Positions 26,685 through 41,662 of a DNA stretch of 64,000 nt are shown piece by piece. Numbering within the stretch: the first letter of the stretch is position 1; the number at the start of each line of letters is the position of its first letter. The position numbers were made by a program, and so were the translations under genes. This DNA comes from Escherichia phage BB1. The notes under the pieces were generated by a model. That model was not told the DNA's origin and did no database searches. It saw only the letters and a list, made by a program, of their open reading frames with translations. Where the stretch lies: sequence record NC_106597.1; one strand, given 5' to 3'.

Positions 26685-27137
26685 ATGTCATTCACACAGC
26701 AAGAACTTTTAGATAACTTCCGATATGAAGATGGTAAGTTATTTAGAACTACAGGAAGAAATGCAGGGAAAGAATGTTGTGTTTCTACGGGTAACGGATA
26801 TTATCGTATATCTCTAGGGAATAGGACTATGCTTCGGCATAGAGCAATATTTTTAATGCATCATGGATACTTACCTGATTTAGTAGATCATGTGAACACT
26901 ATAAAAGGTGATGATCGTATTGAAAACCTTAGAGAGCAGACAGTATCTGGTAATCTAAGAAATATCAAATATAAGAAAGGAATGCATGTTTACCCTTCTG
27001 GTAGTAAGAACTGGCAAGTAGTATTTACTATTAACCGTAAACGTATAGTTAAAGGAACATATGACAACTATGAGGTTGCATGTTCTATGGCCAAGATGTT
27101 TAGAGGTCAATTATACGGTAGGGAATCAATCCAGTAA
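26685..27137 (+). CDS. HNH homing endonuclease (HNH_3 + AP2-like DNA-binding domain)
   Basis: HRAIFLMHHGYLP...VDHVNTIKGDDRIENLREQT motif; start set at MSFTQQ after GGAGGTGAGG RBS. Confidence 0.8.
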   Translation: MSFTQQELLDNFRYEDGKLFRTTGRNAGKECCVSTGNGYYRISLGNRTMLRHRAIFLMHHGYLPDLVDHVNTIKGDDRIENLREQTVSGNLRNIKYKKGMHVYPSGSKNWQVVFTINRKRIVKGTYDNYEVACSMAKMFRGQLYGRESIQ

Positions 27138-27145
27138 AATTTCAT

Positions 27146-27175
27146 TTGCAAGGGAGTATTATTTTATAGTATAAT
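27146..27175 (+). promoter_or_regulatory. early-type promoter (TTGCAA-18-TATAAT) without an adjacent ORF
   Basis: -35 27146-27151, -10 27170-27175; followed by degenerate leader and no start codon for about 500 nt. Confidence 0.5.
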
Positions 27176-27672
27176 ATTCCCATAAATGAGAGACATTAGT
27201 AAAAATTGATTTTGCTAATTTTTCTTGTTTACAATCCGCGATACGGAACAGTTAGGCTGCCCCATTAAGGGTTGTTTTAACTGTTACGTGTTAGTTTTTA
27301 AACAAATAGTTAATAGAATACTTAGCGATCTGCGTCCCGTAGGAACCCTGGTAAGGCCTCGAAGCAACCTAGATAGAGGTGGTTGTGAAGTGAGACGGGA
27401 GGAGTGAAAAACTCCGAGACGTGATTCTGTAAGTTATATTGCATCTAGTATGAGCTAGTATATGAAGCATTAGGTGAGCAAATCTGGCTTAGCGGCCATC
27501 CTCAAGGATTTGTGCGGTATAGCAAAGCAGCAGCGCAGCGTGAAAGTGGAAGTTGCCACCCCACTTCAGTATTTGCAATTAATTTGTTGAGAAATTGACA
27601 GTAACAGTTGTTCTATTCTTTCTGAATAGTCCTAAAGAAAACTTATTTCATTTCCAACACAGGAGTATTGTT
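27176..27672 (+). other. long untranslated segment; candidate structured RNA or regulatory leader
   Basis: About 500 nt without a credible RBS+ORF, several GC-rich hairpins (e.g. ggagt-gaaaa-actcc at 27401-27415), GC-richer than typical intergenic DNA here. Confidence 0.3.
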
Positions 27673-30459
27673 GTGTTTTCAATCCTACAAGGTCATGCAG
27701 GATTTCATCGCGATTTAGCCACAGGCAATTGGCGAGAAGTTAAGGCAGAAGATTATCTTTTTGCTAAAAGATTTTCCTCAAAGCATCCTGAAGGTAAACC
27801 AGCTTCAATGCCCTTCAAGTTTGATGTAATTGATGAAGTTGATCCTCAAACCCTAGTAGAAATGCTTCCTCTTATGAGACGTTTAACGTCTGACCCTCAT
27901 ATCGTTGCGGTACGAGGTCGATGTCTTGCACCTAAAAATAATGTGCGACGTAAGAAGGGCAACTTTAATGTATCTAACCCAAGTCATATAATTGCAATGG
28001 ACGTGGATGGTATTGTAGATACAGGTGGTTGTAACAAGTTTGATCTTGTTGGCATGGCTCGACATATTATTAGGATGTTAAATAGTATTAGTGAGGATAT
28101 GTTTCCTCTTGATGCAGGGTTTATTGCTCATGCATCGTCTTCGGCCGGACTAAAACCAGGTATCCGAATGCACTTAATACTAGAATCTAATGTTAAAGTA
28201 ACTCAGGGTCAAATCAAATTCTTATTTACATCTATCAACGAAAGTAGTAGACAAAAGTATGGCTTTGATATTGCCGACTTAGCTTATTACTCTTCTGTAC
28301 AGCTCCATTACTTTGCAGATCCTTTATTTATTGATGGTATAGTTGATCCGTTTAAAGCGGAGGGTGCTTCACGTCTGGTATTTGTTAAAGGCTCAAAAGT
28401 AAATTTACCTAATAATCTAGTTGACTATGAAACAACTAGAGGAGAGTTTAAAGAGGAATTCTACTCCCTACTCGATCAAATTAAAGGTAAAAAAGCTGCC
28501 TCTGATAAAGTAGAAGAAACCATCAGCGAATTAGAAGAAGCTGAGGATGGTGTATATCTACGTATTATTCCTAAACTCTATCACCGAGCACTAGAGGATG
28601 GTGTAGATTTTGGCTGGCTAGAGAAGGAGATCCGCCCAGCTTTATCTGAGTATATTGCAACTAAAGATAATAGTCGTAATATTCAAGATTACTTTAATAA
28701 CGGTCGAAAACAGGCTCTGAAAGCATTTGTTAATAATTCTAAACGTGATATACCTGATGTTTTAAAAGGTATTCCGCTTAAAAAGCTAGAAACTAACTCT
28801 CTAGAAACAGATAATTTCCTGAAATTAAACACTGTACCACCAGAAGGTTACATGACTTTTGTAAAAGCAAGTCTAGGCACAGGTAAAACCACGGCGGTTG
28901 TGCGTTGGTTAGATTCAGGGGTTATTAAAGGTAATTTCTTAGCAATTACCAATACTAGAGCACTGGTATCTTCAAATGCCAAGAAATTTAGTGCAGGACA
29001 ATATGATAAGTCTGTAGATATGCTTAATTTTAAGCGTGGTGCTATTGACCGTATGTCCACAACTATCCACTCTTTACATAAGTTTAAGAGTTTTATTGGC
29101 CAAATTGATGCAATCTTTATCGATGAATGTGATGCAGTAATGAATGACCTATTATTCGCCCCGGTTGTTAAGCAACGTCGCGAGTGTATTCAGGTTCTTC
29201 GGGATATTCTTGCAACTGCGAAAATAATTATATTATCTGATGGGGATATTAGTGCAGAAACAATTGAAGCATATGGTTCTTTGATTGAATTTGATAAACC
29301 GGTCGCATTTTATAATCATCATCGTAAGATGCTGTCAAAAGCTCATGCTTATGAGTTCCCTGATGAATCCAGTATTTGGGTTGCACTCCAGACTTCTCTA
29401 GAGATGGGTGAGAAATCTATTCTAGTATCTGATTGTGGTCCTGATGAGCTGAATGAGAAGGGTATGGCACTGCGTCGTAATACGGGTGCGTTAGTTAAGG
29501 AAATCCATTCAAACTCCACCTCAGATGTGGATATTCGACGTATTCTGGATTATACAACTAATGAGCTAATTGATCAACAAATTGATTGCTTATTATGTAG
29601 TCCATCCGTAACGAGTGGCGTTGACTTTAACTATTTCGATAATGTATTTGTTATTACTAGAACCAGTAATCAAGCGCCAAACATGCGTTTTCAAGCAATC
29701 AGGCGCGACCGTGGTGCTCAGAATATCTATTATTTTATTGATAAATCTACGAGTGGATTCTCCGCAGGTTCTGAACAATATAACATTGATGAAGGTTGGC
29801 TGGAGTTAGCACAGCAATTATACGCACGTCGCAGGGAGCTGGAATCTAGGAACTATACTAGTACTTTACGTTATTACTTGCTTGATCAGGGTGCAACTAT
29901 TGATATTTTCAGCGAAAGCTGGGGAACTATTGAAGGTGCTGGTAAAGAATATACAGAAGAGCGAATCAAAGCTATTCTGCATTCAACTCCAGATTATTGT
30001 GCTCCACGTCATGCGGATGCATATGAAGCTAAACTACTTCTTGTTCGCTATTACCATCTTGAGTCTATTAAAGATGTAACAGTTGAGCATGTTGAACAAT
30101 ATATCAAAGATAAACCAAATGATCGAGCTGCATTCTTCCATAAGATGCACGAGATGTTCTGGGAAGACATTAAGAAGTGTTCAAATGTAACCATTAAACC
30201 ATTCATAGAAGCTCTGAAAGGTAAGAAGAAAGACTTCTTCCTTAAAACAGGTCAGAGTGCTAACCCAAAATATGCTAGAATGTATCTTGGTATGATGGGT
30301 ATTGGTAAGGATATGAACACTGAAAATATCGTAGACTGGTACAGAACCTATTGTAAAATCGAATGTATGCCAATTCCTTTCAAATTCATGACAGAGGAAG
30401 AGAAAGCTATGGCAGAAGAAGTAATGTCCGAACTTGGAGCAACTAATGAAGATGCATAA
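27673..30459 (+). CDS. putative primase-polymerase (AEP-like N-domain) fused to P-loop NTPase/helicase
   Basis: N-terminal IIAMDVDG and SSSAGLKPGIRMHL resemble AEP motifs; Walker A LGTGKTT, Walker B IFIDECD; start set at GTG 27673 7 nt after AGGAG. Confidence 0.6.
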   Translation: MFSILQGHAGFHRDLATGNWREVKAEDYLFAKRFSSKHPEGKPASMPFKFDVIDEVDPQTLVEMLPLMRRLTSDPHIVAVRGRCLAPKNNVRRKKGNFNVSNPSHIIAMDVDGIVDTGGCNKFDLVGMARHIIRMLNSISEDMFPLDAGFIAHASSSAGLKPGIRMHLILESNVKVTQGQIKFLFTSINESSRQKYGFDIADLAYYSSVQLHYFADPLFIDGIVDPFKAEGASRLVFVKGSKVNLPNNLVDYETTRGEFKEEFYSLLDQIKGKKAASDKVEETISELEEAEDGVYLRIIPKLYHRALEDGVDFGWLEKEIRPALSEYIATKDNSRNIQDYFNNGRKQALKAFVNNSKRDIPDVLKGIPLKKLETNSLETDNFLKLNTVPPEGYMTFVKASLGTGKTTAVVRWLDSGVIKGNFLAITNTRALVSSNAKKFSAGQYDKSVDMLNFKRGAIDRMSTTIHSLHKFKSFIGQIDAIFIDECDAVMNDLLFAPVVKQRRECIQVLRDILATAKIIILSDGDISAETIEAYGSLIEFDKPVAFYNHHRKMLSKAHAYEFPDESSIWVALQTSLEMGEKSILVSDCGPDELNEKGMALRRNTGALVKEIHSNSTSDVDIRRILDYTTNELIDQQIDCLLCSPSVTSGVDFNYFDNVFVITRTSNQAPNMRFQAIRRDRGAQNIYYFIDKSTSGFSAGSEQYNIDEGWLELAQQLYARRRELESRNYTSTLRYYLLDQGATIDIFSESWGTIEGAGKEYTEERIKAILHSTPDYCAPRHADAYEAKLLLVRYYHLESIKDVTVEHVEQYIKDKPNDRAAFFHKMHEMFWEDIKKCSNVTIKPFIEALKGKKKDFFLKTGQSANPKYARMYLGMMGIGKDMNTENIVDWYRTYCKIECMPIPFKFMTEEEKAMAEEVMSELGATNEDA

Positions 30460-30964
30460 ACCAATGCCTCCTATGGAATTTATCCTAGAAAAGCTTAGGT
30501 ATGACGAAAGTACTGGGGACTTAATTTGGTTATCTGGCCCAAGGAAGGGAAAGGTAGCGGGCTCCAAAATGAAAACTGGGAGACAGCTAGAGTTTACGAT
30601 AAATGGGGAGCGGACAGCTTACTTAGCCCATAGAATAATCTGGTTTATAAAGACAGGCGAAGATCCTGGAGATAAAACTATCGACCATAAAGACGGTGAT
30701 AGTTTAAACAACTTGTGGGATAATTTACGTAAGGCTACCTATTCCGAAAATGGAAAGAATAAGAAGTGTTCTACTAATTCTACCGGATTCACTGGAGTTG
30801 TAAAACGAGGTAATAGGTATATGGCCTACGCTTACTGCGATGGAAAGCAGCATATTTTTGGTAGACGAGATACCCCGGAAGAAGCCCATCAGCTATACCT
30901 TAGGGGAGTTAAAGAGCTGTTTGGTGAATTTAATCCCTCGGAGAGATATGACAGTGAAGAATAA
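30446..30964 (+). CDS. HNH homing endonuclease (second copy, HNH_3 + AP2-like)
   Basis: AHRIIWFIKTGEDPGDKTIDHKDGDSLNNLWDNLR motif and GFTGV...AY AP2-like region; GGAG RBS; overlaps 3' end of upstream gene. Confidence 0.75.
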   Translation: MKMHKPMPPMEFILEKLRYDESTGDLIWLSGPRKGKVAGSKMKTGRQLEFTINGERTAYLAHRIIWFIKTGEDPGDKTIDHKDGDSLNNLWDNLRKATYSENGKNKKCSTNSTGFTGVVKRGNRYMAYAYCDGKQHIFGRRDTPEEAHQLYLRGVKELFGEFNPSERYDSEE

Positions 30965-35443: not shown

Positions 35444-36203
35444 ACTGAACTGGAACGTAGAAGGTGTAACCGAGTCTCTGAAAGCAAAAGCCACTGCTCT
35501 GGGTGTTTCTGTAATCTCTCAAGAACAAGTAGCTGCTATCGCTACTGAACTGGCTGCTGAAACTGGCAAAGATGTTACTGCTCGCTCTGTTGGCTCTAAA
35601 CTGCGTAAAGAAGGTTTTGAAGTACAGAAAGCTAACGAAGTACAGAAATCCCCGTGGACTCCTGAGCAGGAAGCTGAACTGGTTGATTTCCTGAACGCTC
35701 ATGCTGGTCAGTATACCTATGCTGAAATCGCTGCTGCTGTAGCTGGTGGTCAGTTCGGTGCTAAACAGGTACAGGGTAAGATCCTGAGTCTGGAAATGAC
35801 TGCTTCTGTTAAACCAACTGAAAAAGCTGCTGCTGTTCGTTCCTTTACTCCGGATGAAGAAACTGATTTTGTTAATCAGGTTGTTGCTGGTGCTACTATT
35901 GAAGCTATCGCTGCTCACTTCGGTCGTAATATCAAGCAGATCCGTGGTAAAGCTCTGAGCCTGCTTCGTGAAGGTCGTATCGCTGCTATGCCGGTACAGG
36001 AAACCTCAAGTGCTAAAACTCGTGAAGATCTGTTAGAAGGTCTGGATCTGGCTAACATGACTGTTGCTGAGATCGCTGAGAAAACTGGTAAATCTGAGCG
36101 CGGTGTTAAATCTATGCTGTCTCGTCGTGGTCTGGTTGCTAAGGACTATGATGGTGCCGCTAAGCGTGCTAAACTGGATGCAAAAGCTGCGGCTGCTGAA
36201 TAA
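35436..36203 (+). CDS. Ala-rich protein with four internal HTH-like repeats; putative abundant DNA-binding protein
   Basis: Four repeats of about 30 aa (e.g. YTYAEIAAAVAGGQFGAKQVQGKILSLE / ATIEAIAAHFGRNIKQIRGKALSLL); by eye codon choice resembles highly expressed genes. Confidence 0.55.
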   Translation: MSKLNWNVEGVTESLKAKATALGVSVISQEQVAAIATELAAETGKDVTARSVGSKLRKEGFEVQKANEVQKSPWTPEQEAELVDFLNAHAGQYTYAEIAAAVAGGQFGAKQVQGKILSLEMTASVKPTEKAAAVRSFTPDEETDFVNQVVAGATIEAIAAHFGRNIKQIRGKALSLLREGRIAAMPVQETSSAKTREDLLEGLDLANMTVAEIAEKTGKSERGVKSMLSRRGLVAKDYDGAAKRAKLDAKAAAAE

Positions 36204-36220: not shown

Positions 36221-36253
36221 AAGGGGAGGGGGCTATGCTCCTTCCCCTTTTTG
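36221..36253 (+). terminator. rho-independent terminator
   Basis: aaggggaggggg...ccttcccctt hairpin followed by TTTTG; overlaps the first track-ORF start at 36235. Confidence 0.6.
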
Positions 36254-36285
36254 CATTTAGAAGGCACGAAAGCGTGCAAAGGAGA

Positions 36286-37758
36286 ATGACCTTGTTTAAC
36301 GTGCAAGCTGTAGTGTTGAAGATGCTTCTAGCTTCTGAACAGAAGCAAATAGCATTGGAAACATTCTCAAAACTGCATAAAGATCATTTTAATGACGCTT
36401 TCTCCTCAATTTACCAAGCCGTCCAGAATTATTATAAAAAATATAACACAATGCCGTCCATTGATGCACTGATGCTTGAGGCTAATAGGAACGCCCGCCT
36501 TTCTCAAGCTCTAGTCGTCTTAGCTAACACTCAAATTCCAGAAGTGAGCATGGAACAGGCACTTGAAGTCCTAGAGGCCGAATATACACAGGATTTATTC
36601 CTGAAGCTTCTAGAAACAGACGTGCTTCAAGATTTAACAATGCTGGATCAGGGAGAAATTCTCAACCGAGTTGCCTCCCTTCACTTAAAATTAGAAGAGA
36701 AAGTAACGAATACTGGAAAAGTATTCAACGCAGATAACATGCGTATTTTCCAGAGAGAAGAAGATACCAAACTGAACCTAATCGCTCTTGGTATTTGTAA
36801 TGAGTTCGACGCTCAAATTGGTTTAGCTCGCACAGAAACGTTACTGCTTGGTGGTTGGCGTGGTACTGGTAAATCCATTATCTGTTCAAACATACAGGTT
36901 CAGCAATATTTGAATGGAGATATTGCTCCATACTTCTCAATTGAGATGAAAGAACATGAAGTATTTAGACGTAATCTAGCCATGTTAGCTGGTGTATCAG
37001 CATTAGCAATGCGTAATAATACTCTAGAAGGTGCAGCTCTGTTGAGATTGGCCAGAACTAGAGCTAGAATGTTTAATGGGGGTGAAGAGCTTTTTGATAA
37101 CTTCGTTAAACAGTACACAATGGCTAAGATGAGTGATTTCTACGATATGGAGAGTAAGCTAATAGAGGGATATGAACTACATACTCCCATGATTATTGTT
37201 TATGATCCTGAACTGTCCATTACAACAGTTGACGTAGAATTAAATAAATTAGTTGCTAGATACGGAGATAAAGTTACAGTAGCTTTACTGGACTATATTA
37301 ACCAAACCCGACTTCCAGACTCTAAAACCATTGATATGTATGACTGGAAAGAACAGATGGTTGTTAGCTCGTCTTTCAAATCTATCTGCCAGAAACATAA
37401 CGTGGCTGGCGTAGCTCCTTACCAGATCGATCAAGATGGTAGAACACGTATGTCAAAGGGGATTCTTGATTCTGCAGACATGGCTGCTAATCTTAATGCT
37501 GCAAAAGCTGATAATGGTCAAGGTGCTATTATGTTTGACTTCGTTAAGACTCGTTCTTCTGATAGCGTGAAGTTTATGCCTAAAATGAACTGGGAAACCC
37601 TGCGGATGGATAACACTACCAACCTAGCAATGGAAGATATATCTCAAATGGAAGCTGAGTTCGTTATCCCTATTGAGAAGGATAAGCCGGCTCAACCTAA
37701 ACGTGCTAAGAAAGACAAAGCTGAAAATTCAACAGGTGAACAGGCCAGCGATATATGA
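36286..37758 (+). CDS. replicative helicase-like P-loop ATPase (DnaB/RecA-fold), tentative
   Basis: Walker A GGWRGTGKS, Walker B-like region; start moved to MTLFNV (AAAGGAG RBS) downstream of terminator. Confidence 0.6.
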   Translation: MTLFNVQAVVLKMLLASEQKQIALETFSKLHKDHFNDAFSSIYQAVQNYYKKYNTMPSIDALMLEANRNARLSQALVVLANTQIPEVSMEQALEVLEAEYTQDLFLKLLETDVLQDLTMLDQGEILNRVASLHLKLEEKVTNTGKVFNADNMRIFQREEDTKLNLIALGICNEFDAQIGLARTETLLLGGWRGTGKSIICSNIQVQQYLNGDIAPYFSIEMKEHEVFRRNLAMLAGVSALAMRNNTLEGAALLRLARTRARMFNGGEELFDNFVKQYTMAKMSDFYDMESKLIEGYELHTPMIIVYDPELSITTVDVELNKLVARYGDKVTVALLDYINQTRLPDSKTIDMYDWKEQMVVSSSFKSICQKHNVAGVAPYQIDQDGRTRMSKGILDSADMAANLNAAKADNGQGAIMFDFVKTRSSDSVKFMPKMNWETLRMDNTTNLAMEDISQMEAEFVIPIEKDKPAQPKRAKKDKAENSTGEQASDI

Positions 37759-38645
37759 GTAGAATAACAGAACTACTTGATCTGAAAGGCATTGAATATA
37801 AAGACACAGGTGGGGACATCCTCATCTGTTGTCTCAATCCAGATCATGACGATAAACACCCAAGTTTGCGTATTGATCCTGAAACAGGTATTATGCACTG
37901 CTTGAGTTGTGGCTTCGGTAAAGGTATACCGAGCATTTACCATTATTTTAATGAGACTCAGTACCGACAGTCCCCAAGACTATCACAGGTACGTAAAAAG
38001 ATTTCAGAGATTAGGAATGGATCTACGAATCTTGCAATTCCTGAATCTGCTTACCTTTTCGAAGGTGATTTCCGAGGTATAAGTTCTAAGACCTTGAAGA
38101 AATATTTTGCTTTCCAACACCAAGCAGACTGGGAAGGCAGAATTGTATTCCCAATCACAGATGCTGTTGGACGCAATATCCTATTTTTGGGTCGTTCTAT
38201 AAACAGTTCTGCCCCTCCTAAATACCTAGTAAAACCAAAACAAGTTTCACCGCCAATTTTTCCTGTACGATATAATACTCCAGTTCTTATTCTAGTTGAA
38301 GGTATCTTTGATATGCTGAATCTAGAGGATAATGGTATAGACTATGCTTCTTGTTGCTTTGGTACACATCAGTTTACTTCAGACAACATTGCAGATAAGT
38401 TCAGTCCGTATATTATTGCTGGTGTTAAAGTTGTTGTTATCTTACTAGATAATGATGCTTCTGGTAATAAAGCTGCACAAGCACTGGCTAAGCTAATTCG
38501 TACAAAAACGCGTTTAACACCTGTAGTTGCTAACTTTCTTCTGCCTGAAGGTAAAGACCCAGGTGACTTAAATAAAGAAGAAATTGATATGTTAGCAAAA
38601 CGTATTGAAATTTTAGTTGCTGAATCGCTTAAAGATTTGGTATAA
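37755..38645 (+). CDS. DNA primase (DnaG-type: zinc-binding + Toprim)
   Basis: Zinc ribbon CCLNPDHDDKHPSLRIDPETGIMHCLSCG; Toprim motifs LVEGIFDMLNL and ILLDNDASG. Confidence 0.8.
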   Translation: MSRITELLDLKGIEYKDTGGDILICCLNPDHDDKHPSLRIDPETGIMHCLSCGFGKGIPSIYHYFNETQYRQSPRLSQVRKKISEIRNGSTNLAIPESAYLFEGDFRGISSKTLKKYFAFQHQADWEGRIVFPITDAVGRNILFLGRSINSSAPPKYLVKPKQVSPPIFPVRYNTPVLILVEGIFDMLNLEDNGIDYASCCFGTHQFTSDNIADKFSPYIIAGVKVVVILLDNDASGNKAAQALAKLIRTKTRLTPVVANFLLPEGKDPGDLNKEEIDMLAKRIEILVAESLKDLV

Positions 38646-39094: not shown

Positions 39095-41662
39095 TTGAAA
39101 ATCGCAGTAGTTGATAAAGCTCTAAACAACACTCGTTATGATAAACATTTCCAGCTATACGGCGAGGAAGTTGATGTATTCCATATGTGTAACGAGAAGT
39201 TATCTGGTCGTTTGCTTAAAAAGCACATTACTATTGGAACACCAGAAAACCCATTTGATCCTAATGATTATGATTTTGTTATACTAGTAGGTGCCGAACC
39301 TTTCCTGTACTTTGCAGGTAAGAAAGGTATTGGTGATTATACCGGTAAACGTGTAGAGTATAATGGATATGCTAACTGGATTGCGAGTATCAGCCCAGCC
39401 CAGTTACATTTTAAACCTGAAATGAAACCAGTTTTTGATGCAACAGTAGAGAATATCCACGATATTATCAATGGTCGTGAGAAGATTGCAAAAGCTGGTG
39501 ATTACCGTCCTATTACTGACCCTGATGAGGCGGAAGAATATATCAAGATGGTGTATAATATGGTTATCGGACCTGTCGCATTCGACTCCGAAACCTCAGC
39601 ACTATACTGTCGAGATGGTTATCTGCTTGGTGTTTCTATGTCTCACCAAGAATATCAGGGTGTATATATCGATTCTGATTGTCTCACAGAGGTTGCAGTA
39701 TATTATCTCCAGAAAATTCTGGATAGTGAAAACCACACTATTGTTTTTCACAACTTGAAGTTTGATATGCACTTTTATAAGTACCATCTGGGACTTGCTT
39801 TTGATAAAGCGCATAAAGAACGCAGGCTCCATGATACCATGTTGCAGCACTATGTTCTAGATGAACGTCGTGGTACTCATGGCTTGAAATCTCTAGCGAT
39901 GAAGTACACCGATATGGGTGACTATGACTTCGAACTAGATAAGTTCAAAGATGATTACTGCAAAGCACATAAAATCAAGAAAGAAGATTTCACCTATGAT
40001 TTAATTCCGTTTGATATTATGTGGCCTTACGCTGCGAAAGATACAGATGCTACCATACGTTTGCACAACTTCTTCTTACCAAAAATTGAGAAGAATGAAA
40101 AACTTTGCAGTCTGTATTACGATGTTCTAATGCCTGGTTGTGTATTCCTACAGCGTGTTGAAGATCGTGGTGTACCTATTTCTGTTGATCGTTTAAAAGA
40201 AGCTCAGTATCAGTTAACCCATAATCTGAATAAAGCCCGTGAGAAACTGTATACTTATCCAGAAGTCGTTCAGCTAGAAAAAGACCAGAACGAAGCATTT
40301 AACCCAAACTCTGTTAAGCAGCTACGTGTTCTTCTGTTTGATTATGTTGGTTTAACTCCAACAGGTAAACTGACGGATACTGGAGCAGATTCTACGGATG
40401 CAGAAGCTCTGAATGAACTGGCTACGCAGCATCCAATTGCTAAAACTCTGCTAGAGATTCGTAAGCTGACTAAGCTAATTTCTACTTATGTTGAGAAAAT
40501 TCTTCTGAGTATTGATGCAGATGGTTGCATTCGTACTGGTTTCCACGAACATATGACTACTTCTGGTCGTCTGAGTTCTTCTGGTAAACTGAACCTGCAA
40601 CAGTTACCTCGTGATGAATCTATTATCAAGGGTTGTGTAGTAGCTCCTCCTGGGTACCGTGTAATCGCGTGGGACTTAACAACTGCGGAAGTTTACTATG
40701 CTGCTGTTCTATCTGGTGATAGAAATATGCAACAGGTATTTATCAACATGAGAAATGAACCTGATAAATACCCTGACTTCCACTCTAACATCGCACACAT
40801 GGTATTTAAGCTCCAATGCGAGCCTCGTGATGTTAAAAAGTTATTCCCAGCTCTGCGTCAGGCTGCTAAGGCAATTACCTTCGGTATTTTGTATGGTTCT
40901 GGTCCGGCTAAAGTAGCTCATTCTGTTAACGAAGCTCTTCTGGAACAGGCTGCTAAGACAGGAGAACCGTTTGTTGAGTGTACTGTTGCTGATGCGAAGG
41001 ACTATATCGAAACTTACTTCGGTCAGTTCCCGCAGCTTAAGCGTTGGATTGATAAGTGCCACGATCAGATCAAGAATCATGGATTTATCTATAGTCACTT
41101 TGGTCGTAAACGTCGTCTGCATAATATCCATTCAGAAGACCGTGGCGTTCAGGGTGAAGAAATTCGTTCTGGGTTTAACGCAATCATTCAGTCTGCTTCT
41201 TCTGATAGCCTACTTTTAGGTGCTGTAGATGCAGATAATGAGATCATTTCTCTTGGCCTAGAACAAGAGATGAAGATTGTTATGCTGGTTCACGACTCCG
41301 TAGTTGCTATTGTTCGTGAGGATTTGATCGACCAATACAATGAAATCCTGATTCGTAATATTCAGAAAGACCGTGGTATTAGTATTCCTGGCTGTCCGAT
41401 TGGTATTGATTCAGATTCTGAAGCTGGAGGTTCTCGTGACTACTCTTGTGGTAAGATGAAGAAACAGCACCCATCAATCGCTTGTATTGATGATGATGAA
41501 TATACTCGTTATGTCAAGGGTGTATTACTTGATGCAGAGTTCGAGTATAAGAAACTAGCTGCAATGGATAAAGAGCATCCAGATCATAGCAAATACAAGG
41601 ATGATAAGTTTATTGCTGTATGTAAAGATTTGGATAACGTGAGAAGGATTCTCGGTGCTTAA
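39095..41662 (+). CDS. DNA polymerase, family A (Pol I-like, with 3'-5' exonuclease domain)
   Basis: Motif B RQAAKAITFGILYG, motif C VHDS, exonuclease FDSET; apparent TTG start 8 nt after AGAGGAG. Confidence 0.95.
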   Translation: MKIAVVDKALNNTRYDKHFQLYGEEVDVFHMCNEKLSGRLLKKHITIGTPENPFDPNDYDFVILVGAEPFLYFAGKKGIGDYTGKRVEYNGYANWIASISPAQLHFKPEMKPVFDATVENIHDIINGREKIAKAGDYRPITDPDEAEEYIKMVYNMVIGPVAFDSETSALYCRDGYLLGVSMSHQEYQGVYIDSDCLTEVAVYYLQKILDSENHTIVFHNLKFDMHFYKYHLGLAFDKAHKERRLHDTMLQHYVLDERRGTHGLKSLAMKYTDMGDYDFELDKFKDDYCKAHKIKKEDFTYDLIPFDIMWPYAAKDTDATIRLHNFFLPKIEKNEKLCSLYYDVLMPGCVFLQRVEDRGVPISVDRLKEAQYQLTHNLNKAREKLYTYPEVVQLEKDQNEAFNPNSVKQLRVLLFDYVGLTPTGKLTDTGADSTDAEALNELATQHPIAKTLLEIRKLTKLISTYVEKILLSIDADGCIRTGFHEHMTTSGRLSSSGKLNLQQLPRDESIIKGCVVAPPGYRVIAWDLTTAEVYYAAVLSGDRNMQQVFINMRNEPDKYPDFHSNIAHMVFKLQCEPRDVKKLFPALRQAAKAITFGILYGSGPAKVAHSVNEALLEQAAKTGEPFVECTVADAKDYIETYFGQFPQLKRWIDKCHDQIKNHGFIYSHFGRKRRLHNIHSEDRGVQGEEIRSGFNAIIQSASSDSLLLGAVDADNEIISLGLEQEMKIVMLVHDSVVAIVREDLIDQYNEILIRNIQKDRGISIPGCPIGIDSDSEAGGSRDYSCGKMKKQHPSIACIDDDEYTRYVKGVLLDAEFEYKKLAAMDKEHPDHSKYKDDKFIAVCKDLDNVRRILGA

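Follow-up and report, generated by a model that had tools for sequence, protein, structure and literature searches.

Initiator proteins that place a primase module in front of a UL9-like superfamily 2 (SF2) helicase have been described in several mobile replicons. In mobile elements, archaeo-eukaryotic primases (AEPs) of the all3500 family, which belongs to the PrimPol-PV1 supergroup, are fused to UL9-like SF2 helicases (pVOG9714/1685) (Kazlauskas et al. 2018, PMC5862659). N15 RepA and the CyRepA1 proteins are initiators of mobile replicons with a UL9-like helicase core and a primase-type domain N-terminal to it. Taken together, the all3500, N15 RepA and CyRepA1 designs indicate that a primase module plus a UL9-like SF2 helicase is a known initiator design with an interchangeable primase fold. 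The pRN1 ORF904 protein, poxvirus D5/E5 and the PrimPol of African swine fever virus (ASFV) likewise carry an AEP, a helical bundle and a helicase on one chain. UL9 of herpes simplex virus (HSV) is itself an SF2 initiator. The present analysis concerns the D2 gene in a 64,000-nucleotide (nt) stretch of Escherichia phage BB1 (NC_106597.1), hereafter the window. As modelled, its product is the AEP version of this design in a classical lytic phage, and the replication initiator of T5-like phages probably includes a second priming enzyme.

The D2 protein of bacteriophage T5 has been characterized biochemically as an ATP-dependent bipolar helicase (Wong et al. 2013, PMC3632103). The purified protein was demonstrated to have ATPase and helicase activity as well as limited hydrolysis-independent unwinding, and its Walker A lysine (K405), SF2-type motifs V and VI and a Pfam PF02399 match at residues 392–532 were identified (PMC3632103). 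D2 is essential for DNA synthesis by T5, its amber mutants having zero net synthesis, and it was put forward as the replication initiator in the same work (PMC3632103). Residues 1–388 were given only a predicted helix-turn-helix (HTH) at 308–329; a primase function was not considered, the word primase occurring there in a reference only (PMC3632103). Literature searches found no paper in the library searched tying T5 or Tequintavirus to an AEP primase, and T5 and its relatives are not named in the text or the available supplements of PMC5862659. In a 2016 global survey, AEP and DnaG homologues were mutually exclusive among double-stranded DNA (dsDNA) viruses, phage RM378 being the only exception (PMC4889955); T5-like phages were evidently scored there as DnaG-only. 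GenBank names for the D2-type gene are inconsistent, ranging over "helicase", "replication origin binding protein", "DNA primase", "DNA primase C" and "hypothetical". The two primase labels come without explanation in some records, and the BASEL paper offers no discussion of the "DNA primase" label. The AEP plus UL9-like helicase layout is known elsewhere; for T5 D2, with a DnaG primase encoded nearby, there seems to be no earlier report of it. What would be new is the identification of this domain in D2 and its occurrence together with DnaG throughout a phage family, the architecture itself being known.

The window belongs to a T5-like phage (Tequintavirus), with 95–97% nt identity to several isolates over the 3.1-kilobase (kb) stretch compared around the D2 gene. 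The product of the gene, 928 amino acids (aa) long, is 93% identical to T5 D2 (AAU05245) over all 928 residues with 0 gaps. The two proteins are separated by 61 substitutions, nearly all of them N-terminal to residue 540. The match to PHROG 3712, the T5 D2 orthologous group, is full-length (1–926 of 927, E = 0), and the similarity is collinear with a retained early-replication position. The window, T5 and phage DaisyDussoix share synteny in the early replication block, which runs Sir2, small open reading frames (ORFs), D2, HNH, a D3-like HTH protein, a split NAD ligase (ligA/B), an HTH protein, a DnaB-like helicase, a DnaG-type primase and a family A polymerase. By this similarity and gene order, the gene is the phage's ortholog of T5 D2. 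The mechanical ORF spans 27595–30459 and opens with TTG; this start was dropped in favour of GTG at 27673, which lies 8 nt after a conserved Shine-Dalgarno sequence (AGGAG, 27661–27665) and agrees with the GTG start annotated in DaisyDussoix and T5. The reading frame proposed in a first-pass annotation, made from the letters of the window, is therefore sound. That annotation had also offered, as an alternative to a primase-helicase, an origin-binding initiator comparable to a T5 protein of similar size. The comparison was apt, since the protein is T5 D2 itself and has been proposed as an initiator, but it is not an alternative: the two readings merge into an initiator with a built-in primase.

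The N-terminal domain carries a set of motifs in the order expected of an AEP. Published AEP motifs are hhhDhD/E (I), sxH (II), hD/E (III) and "Rh" (IV) (PMC5862659). In D2, the sequence I106-I-A-M-D110-V-D112, on strand 104–114, takes the form of the metal-binding motif I. H167, at least 90% conserved and located on strand 164–176, stands where the nucleotide-binding His of motif II is expected, and A201-D202 provides a candidate for the third metal ligand of motif III. A conserved SSSAG loop precedes G163-I-R-M-H167, giving the family pattern SSSAGxKPGxRxH. Residues D110, D112, S155, G159, H167 and D202 do not vary across six Demerecviridae genera. In a set of 74 homologues, the most distant at about 20% identity, each of them is still at least 90% conserved, D202 being the sole invariant column of the 74-sequence alignment. 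D225-P226 also belong to the conserved set in alignments of the N-terminal family. The candidate catalytic residues are kept across Tequintavirus, Sugarlandvirus, Priunavirus, Vibrio and Aeromonas phages and bacterial mobile-element proteins. All four motifs quoted in the first-pass annotation are present, namely IIAMDVDG (aa 106–113), SSSAGLKPGIRMHL (aa 155–168), LGTGKTT (aa 401–407) and IFIDECD (aa 481–487), and the DxD and His motifs among them fall on the conserved positions of the family. Judged from the alignments, these are more than chance strings, and by pattern and strand position D110, D112, H167 and D202 would correspond to AEP catalytic residues.

This conservation bears on whether the domain is still an enzyme. 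It might be a relic with an AEP fold that makes no primers and serves D2 as a DNA-binding, origin-recognition or helicase-loading module, the DnaG-type primase of the phage doing all the priming. Inactive paralogues, however, normally lose their catalytic residues, whereas here the Asp pair of motif I, the His of motif II and the Asp of motif III are the most conserved positions even among the most distant homologues. Moreover, the AEP core of the window differs from that of T5 at 59 of 450 nt but at 16 of 150 residues. The conserved catalytic residues and the few residue changes argue for a functional enzyme over a relic, and the AEP domain is presumably catalytically active.

The predicted structure points in the same direction. 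An AlphaFold model built from the 74-homologue alignment has a predicted local distance difference test (pLDDT) score of 92.8 overall and 95–98 across aa 1–250; a single-sequence AF2 model of the N-terminal region was useless (pLDDT 34.5). The modelled core consists of a strand (104–114, with the DxD), a helix (125–139), two strands (150–154, and 164–176 with H167) and a helix (178–196), followed by D202; a helical bundle comes after the core at aa 262–356. When the model was compared with the PDB using Foldseek, 48 of the top 50 matches were AEPs from at least nine families, with E-values of 1e-3 to 0.2, which are marginal, and probabilities up to 0.98. They included RepB', LigD-Pol, cyanophage S-2L PrimPol, ASFV PrimPol, Prim-PolC, an archaeal polymerase of non-homologous end joining (NHEJ), CAPP, human PrimPol and herpes primase. 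Over solved and viral structures together, the best matches were nearly all AEPs, with pRN1 ORF904 and E5 of monkeypox virus (MPXV) among them. Sequence identity to D2 was 10–16% for the pRN1/poxvirus/ASFV type. Against viral predicted structures (BFVD), dozens of phage proteins that are not close relatives matched at E-values of 1e-8 to 1e-4 under names such as primase, PriCT-2, VapE, DUF927, NrS-1-like and primase/helicase, the probability reaching 1.00 for phage primases. Residues 1–250 therefore very probably adopt the AEP-type fold that the first-pass annotation had suspected, an assignment based on the predicted structure, the motif pattern and the domain architecture.

It is highly improbable that the domain is something other than an AEP, either an alpha/beta sandwich resembling an RNA recognition motif (RRM) reached by convergence, or kin to HUH Rep endonucleases or other palm-like domains, with the motifs present by coincidence. 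Against such a reading stand the breadth of AEP families among the PDB matches and the phage primases in BFVD, as well as the three acidic residues and the His, which occur in AEP order on the expected strands. Rep68 of adeno-associated virus (AAV) did appear at Foldseek ranks 43 and 50; the HUH/Rep endonuclease reading was rejected as the protein has no HUH motif or catalytic Tyr pattern. Relatives of the domain, described below, additionally occur in a PriCT-2/D5_N/superfamily 3 (SF3) context.

Sequence comparison gave no significant link to known AEPs. No curated AEP model of Pfam (Prim-Pol and others) or NCBIfam matched the window protein, Pfam applied at E up to 5 to 40 distant relatives gave no AEP family, and hidden Markov model (HMM) profiles of the family found no AEP among PDB sequences. 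Residues 1–390 went unrecognised by Pfam and NCBIfam, and PHROGs returned the self-family only. In an hhalign comparison, the N-terminal family and a five-sequence alignment of S-2L-type PrimPols had motifs I–III in register over 74 columns, but with E = 0.13 and a probability below 1%; against cyanophage S-2L PrimPol alone, hhalign found nothing. No profile match to a curated AEP family in Pfam, NCBIfam or PDB profiles was significant. The N-terminal domain of D2 is detected by no AEP sequence model, and a domain this divergent is one point in favour of a relic.

The wider family of the domain provides further evidence of its role. HMMER, run exhaustively over 1.84 billion cluster representatives, retrieved 77 relatives, about 36 of which are full-length D2-type proteins of roughly 900–1050 aa, while about 40 are distant (20–30% identity) and of other lengths. 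In the distant relatives, the shared domain is followed by PriCT_2, D5_N, DUF5906, Pox_D5 or VapE-like modules. For instance, the metagenomic protein P0044 (locus L017, 8001–10592) has a D2-like domain at aa 4–263, PriCT_2 at 246–323, D5_N at 414–567, DUF5906 at 599–711 and Pox_D5 at 775–862. Its gene has as neighbours an Enc34-type single-stranded DNA-binding protein, a PD-(D/E)XK nuclease, an SNF2 helicase and YdaS-like genes. By its gene content, the locus is a phage-type replication module, with the D2-like domain as its only primase candidate. Going by these domain matches, the shared domain fills the catalytic-primase slot of classical primase-helicases in the distant relatives; its presence in that slot in proteins without another primase domain is a second point against a relic. 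A word-indexed search of 5.8 billion proteins gave only two fragments for an N-terminal query (27673–28842) and four proteins for the profile of the N-terminal family. As the C-terminal half found 118 full-length D2-type proteins in the same search, the N-terminal shortfall reflects an index or candidate limit, not an absence of homologues. The D2 domain may seed a small AEP family, represented by the 77 clusters, that current Pfam and NCBIfam models overlook.

The domain is followed by an alpha-helical bundle and the helicase core. The bundle occupies the PriCT-2 position of the distant relatives; hhalign of the D2 bundle against PriCT_2 segments was negative, leaving homology to PriCT-2 unsupported. 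The core scores 29.2 bits against PF02399 (Herpes_ori_bp), with a gathering cutoff of 20, over aa 394–533, and its motifs GTGKT, DECD, SPSVTSGVD and QAIRRDRG are invariant across the six Demerecviridae genera. HSV UL9 structures are the only PDB sequence matches of D2. NCBIfam CyRepA1 (NF042913) matches aa 393–708 at 6e-35; membership in CyRepA1 was rejected, as the score of 121 bits is below the equivalog cutoff of 200 and the helicase part alone aligns. N15 RepA aligns with aa 394–691. On sequence grounds, the D2 helicase is an SF2 enzyme of the UL9/CyRepA1/N15-RepA kind. The P-loop helicase that the first-pass annotation placed after the N-terminal region is confirmed by these matches; its suggested comparison with SF3 profiles yielded no D5_N, DUF5906, VapE or Pox_D5 match in the window protein, SF3-type modules occurring only in the distant relatives of the N-terminal domain. 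The C-terminal domain is a candidate DNA-binding or partner-binding region.

Among the described systems, the all3500 proteins have the domain order modelled for D2 (AEP, accessory domain, UL9-like SF2 helicase) and, like D2, keep the motif II His and a possible "Rh" motif IV (PMC5862659). The helicase core of N15 RepA and CyRepA1 is homologous to that of D2, but their priming module is of the Toprim/DUF3854 type instead of AEP-like. Apparently, different primase folds have been swapped in front of one helicase family. The UL9-like core itself recurs in CyRepA1 plasmid proteins (loci L008, L009 and L010) and in N15 repA (L011, 9890–13861). The helicases of pRN1 ORF904, poxvirus D5/E5 and ASFV PrimPol are of SF3 (D5/AAA+ type), in contrast to the SF2 helicase of D2. 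HSV UL9 is the closest solved helicase (E 2e-5, about 145 residues aligning in the RecA1 domain); it lacks the primase domain predicted for D2, and in herpesviruses a separate AEP, UL52, does the priming.

The phage has two different primase-type domains. A DnaB/DnaG pair lies 6 kb downstream of D2, with matches to DnaB_C, Zn_ribbon_DnaG, DNAG_N and Toprim all above the Pfam gathering scores. The DnaG-type primase has an intact CHC2 ribbon, EG motif (LVEGIFD) and DxD (LLDNDASG). The first-pass annotation was right that both a canonical primase and a separate helicase are co-encoded; the helicase gene that it gave as 36286–37758 exists, but its start was set too far downstream, the ORF beginning at 36235. 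An intact DnaG/DnaB pair, and the survey finding that viruses almost never have both an AEP and a DnaG (PMC4889955), speak for a relic in D2. Weighed with the retained catalytic residues and the primase-slot relatives, a relic is unlikely.

The mechanism proposed here is that of an initiator that both unwinds and primes. D2 would be made early from its own promoter, and its helicase would bind and open the phage DNA. The AEP domain, helped by the helical bundle, would then make the first primer on the exposed strand, with D110, D112 and D202 holding metal ions and H167, perhaps with R234, holding the nucleotide. The family A polymerase would extend this primer, after which the DnaB-like helicase and the DnaG-type primase would drive the fork and make the Okazaki primers. 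This chain as a whole is judged modestly favoured; within it, the fold assignment is the stronger link and the origin-priming role the weaker. The activity of the AEP domain, its use in origin priming and the division of labour with DnaG are what we infer from the model.

An active D2 could also work elsewhere, as a PrimPol- or LigD-like primase-polymerase/helicase that restarts forks, reprimes or takes part in recombination-dependent replication, and not in origin initiation. LigD-Pol, Prim-PolC and human PrimPol are among the best structural matches, some repair helicases unwind bipolarly (PMC3632103), and replicating T5 DNA has multiple internal origins according to a reference cited in PMC3632103. 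Nevertheless, D2 amber mutants have an initiation-type phenotype, with no net DNA synthesis at all, the helicase groups with the initiators UL9, N15 RepA and CyRepA1, and relatives of the N-terminal domain are found in mobile-element replication modules, not in repair operons. A restart role is accordingly rated somewhat below even the relic. For the preferred reading, an initiator that unwinds and primes, the wider form is more tentative: it is possible, at somewhat less than even chances, that all Demerecviridae carry an active AEP primase of an unmodelled family in the D2 N-terminus beside DnaG/DnaB, the AEP making the origin (leading-strand) primer and DnaG the Okazaki primers.

The coordinates of the features are collected in Table 1. 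The D2 gene is preceded by about 535 non-coding nt (27138–27672) separating it from an HNH gene, and every Demerecviridae locus compared has a gap of 600–1600 nt before D2. The promoter site is conserved in T5, DaisyDussoix, FZ41 and PR1, and a putative promoter is annotated at the corresponding position of the T5 record. The RNA fold of the leader has z = -3.97 against shuffled controls; covariation support is weak among the four sequences, and Rfam gave no significant match in the leader. A GCTTAGCGGC block at 27487–27496 is invariant. Immediately upstream of the dnaB-like gene, at 36156–36165 (minus strand), this 10-mer occurs again as an exact inverted copy, one shared with T5 and DaisyDussoix; the recurrence is compatible with chance, as at least 3 one-mismatch matches arose in 30 of 100 shuffles. 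Iterons or an AT-rich origin-like element were sought in the leader, and no convincing repeat family was found. The leader could act in the RNA, as a structured 5' untranslated region (5'UTR) that regulates D2, or in the DNA, for example as an origin.

Table 1. Positions in the window of the D2 gene, its domains and motifs, its upstream region and the separate replication genes
Feature	Coordinates	Strand	Remarks
Sigma-70-like promoter of the D2 transcription unit	27146..27175	+	TTGCAA-18-TATAAT; 10/12 consensus matches
Long non-coding leader	27176..27672	+	No credible ORF; possible structured 5'UTR or DNA element
D2 gene	27673..30459	+	928 aa: AEP-like primase domain, helical bundle, SF2 helicase, C-terminal domain
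N-terminal AEP-like catalytic domain (aa 1–250), predicted	27673..28422	+	N-terminal alpha/beta unit plus RRM-like beta-alpha-beta-beta-alpha-beta core
AEP motif I candidate IIAMDVDG (D110, D112)	27988..28011	+	Strand 104–114; fits hhhDhD/E (PMC5862659)
AEP motif II candidate SSSAGLKPGIRMHL (S155, G159, H167)	28135..28176	+	H167 on strand 164–176; fits sxH (PMC5862659)
AEP motif III candidate IAD (D202), then family signature VQxHYxAxP	28270..28323	+	Fits hD/E (PMC5862659)
Possible motif IV ("Rh") R234-L235	28369..28386	+	R234 at least 90% conserved; tentative register against known AEPs
Alpha-helical bundle (aa 255–360)	28435..28752	+	Occupies PriCT-2 position of distant relatives; includes the HTH 308–329 predicted in 2013
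SF2 helicase core, UL9 type (aa 390–700)	28840..29772	+	Pfam PF02399, UL9 structures, CyRepA1, N15 RepA
Helicase motif Walker A	28873-28893	+	
Helicase motif Walker B	29113-29133	+	
Helicase motif V	29599-29625	+	
Helicase motif VI (Arg finger)	29686-29715	+	
C-terminal domain (aa 701–928)	29773..30456	+	No Pfam match; conserved across Demerecviridae; 97% nt identity to T5
DnaB-like replicative helicase, separate gene	36235..37758	+	507 aa; Pfam DnaB_C; = T5p117 dnaB
DnaG-type primase (CHC2 zinc ribbon + Toprim)	37755..38645	+	Pfam Zn_ribbon_DnaG, DNAG_N, Toprim_2; = T5p119
Family A polymerase	39095-41662		

The D2 gene is a mosaic when compared with T5 (window 27673–30459 against T5 locus L007, 3490–6276). 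Codons 701–928 are 97% identical in nt with one amino acid change, codons 1–365 are 84–87% identical, and the linker codons 366–389 are only 64% identical, a pattern along the gene that suggests a recombination breakpoint within it. HNH_3 homing-endonuclease genes stand on both sides of D2 (26685–27137 and 30434–30964), the upstream one being absent from T5 and DaisyDussoix. The HNH gene that T5 and DaisyDussoix have between dnaB and the primase gene (T5 locus L007, 13575–14108) is missing in the window, and as a result the two genes overlap there by 4 nt.

T5 is a classical model phage, and D2 is its best initiator candidate, although 40% of the protein has lacked an assigned function. An AEP domain in D2 would give a testable mechanism, in which one polypeptide opens and primes the DNA, and would account for the conservation of the N-terminal third from enterobacterial to Vibrio and Aeromonas phages. 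Additionally, the AEP-helicase reading would allow the inconsistent GenBank labels of the gene to be reconciled. If the wider form of the proposal is true, the Demerecviridae would be a family-wide exception to the rule of one primase type, AEP or DnaG, per dsDNA virus, and the coexistence of the two would imply that the priming systems differ in function. In that case, the cognate origin might be the conserved 0.5-kb leader upstream of D2, and T5 would become a tractable bacterial model for the herpes- and pox-like coupling of initiator and primase.

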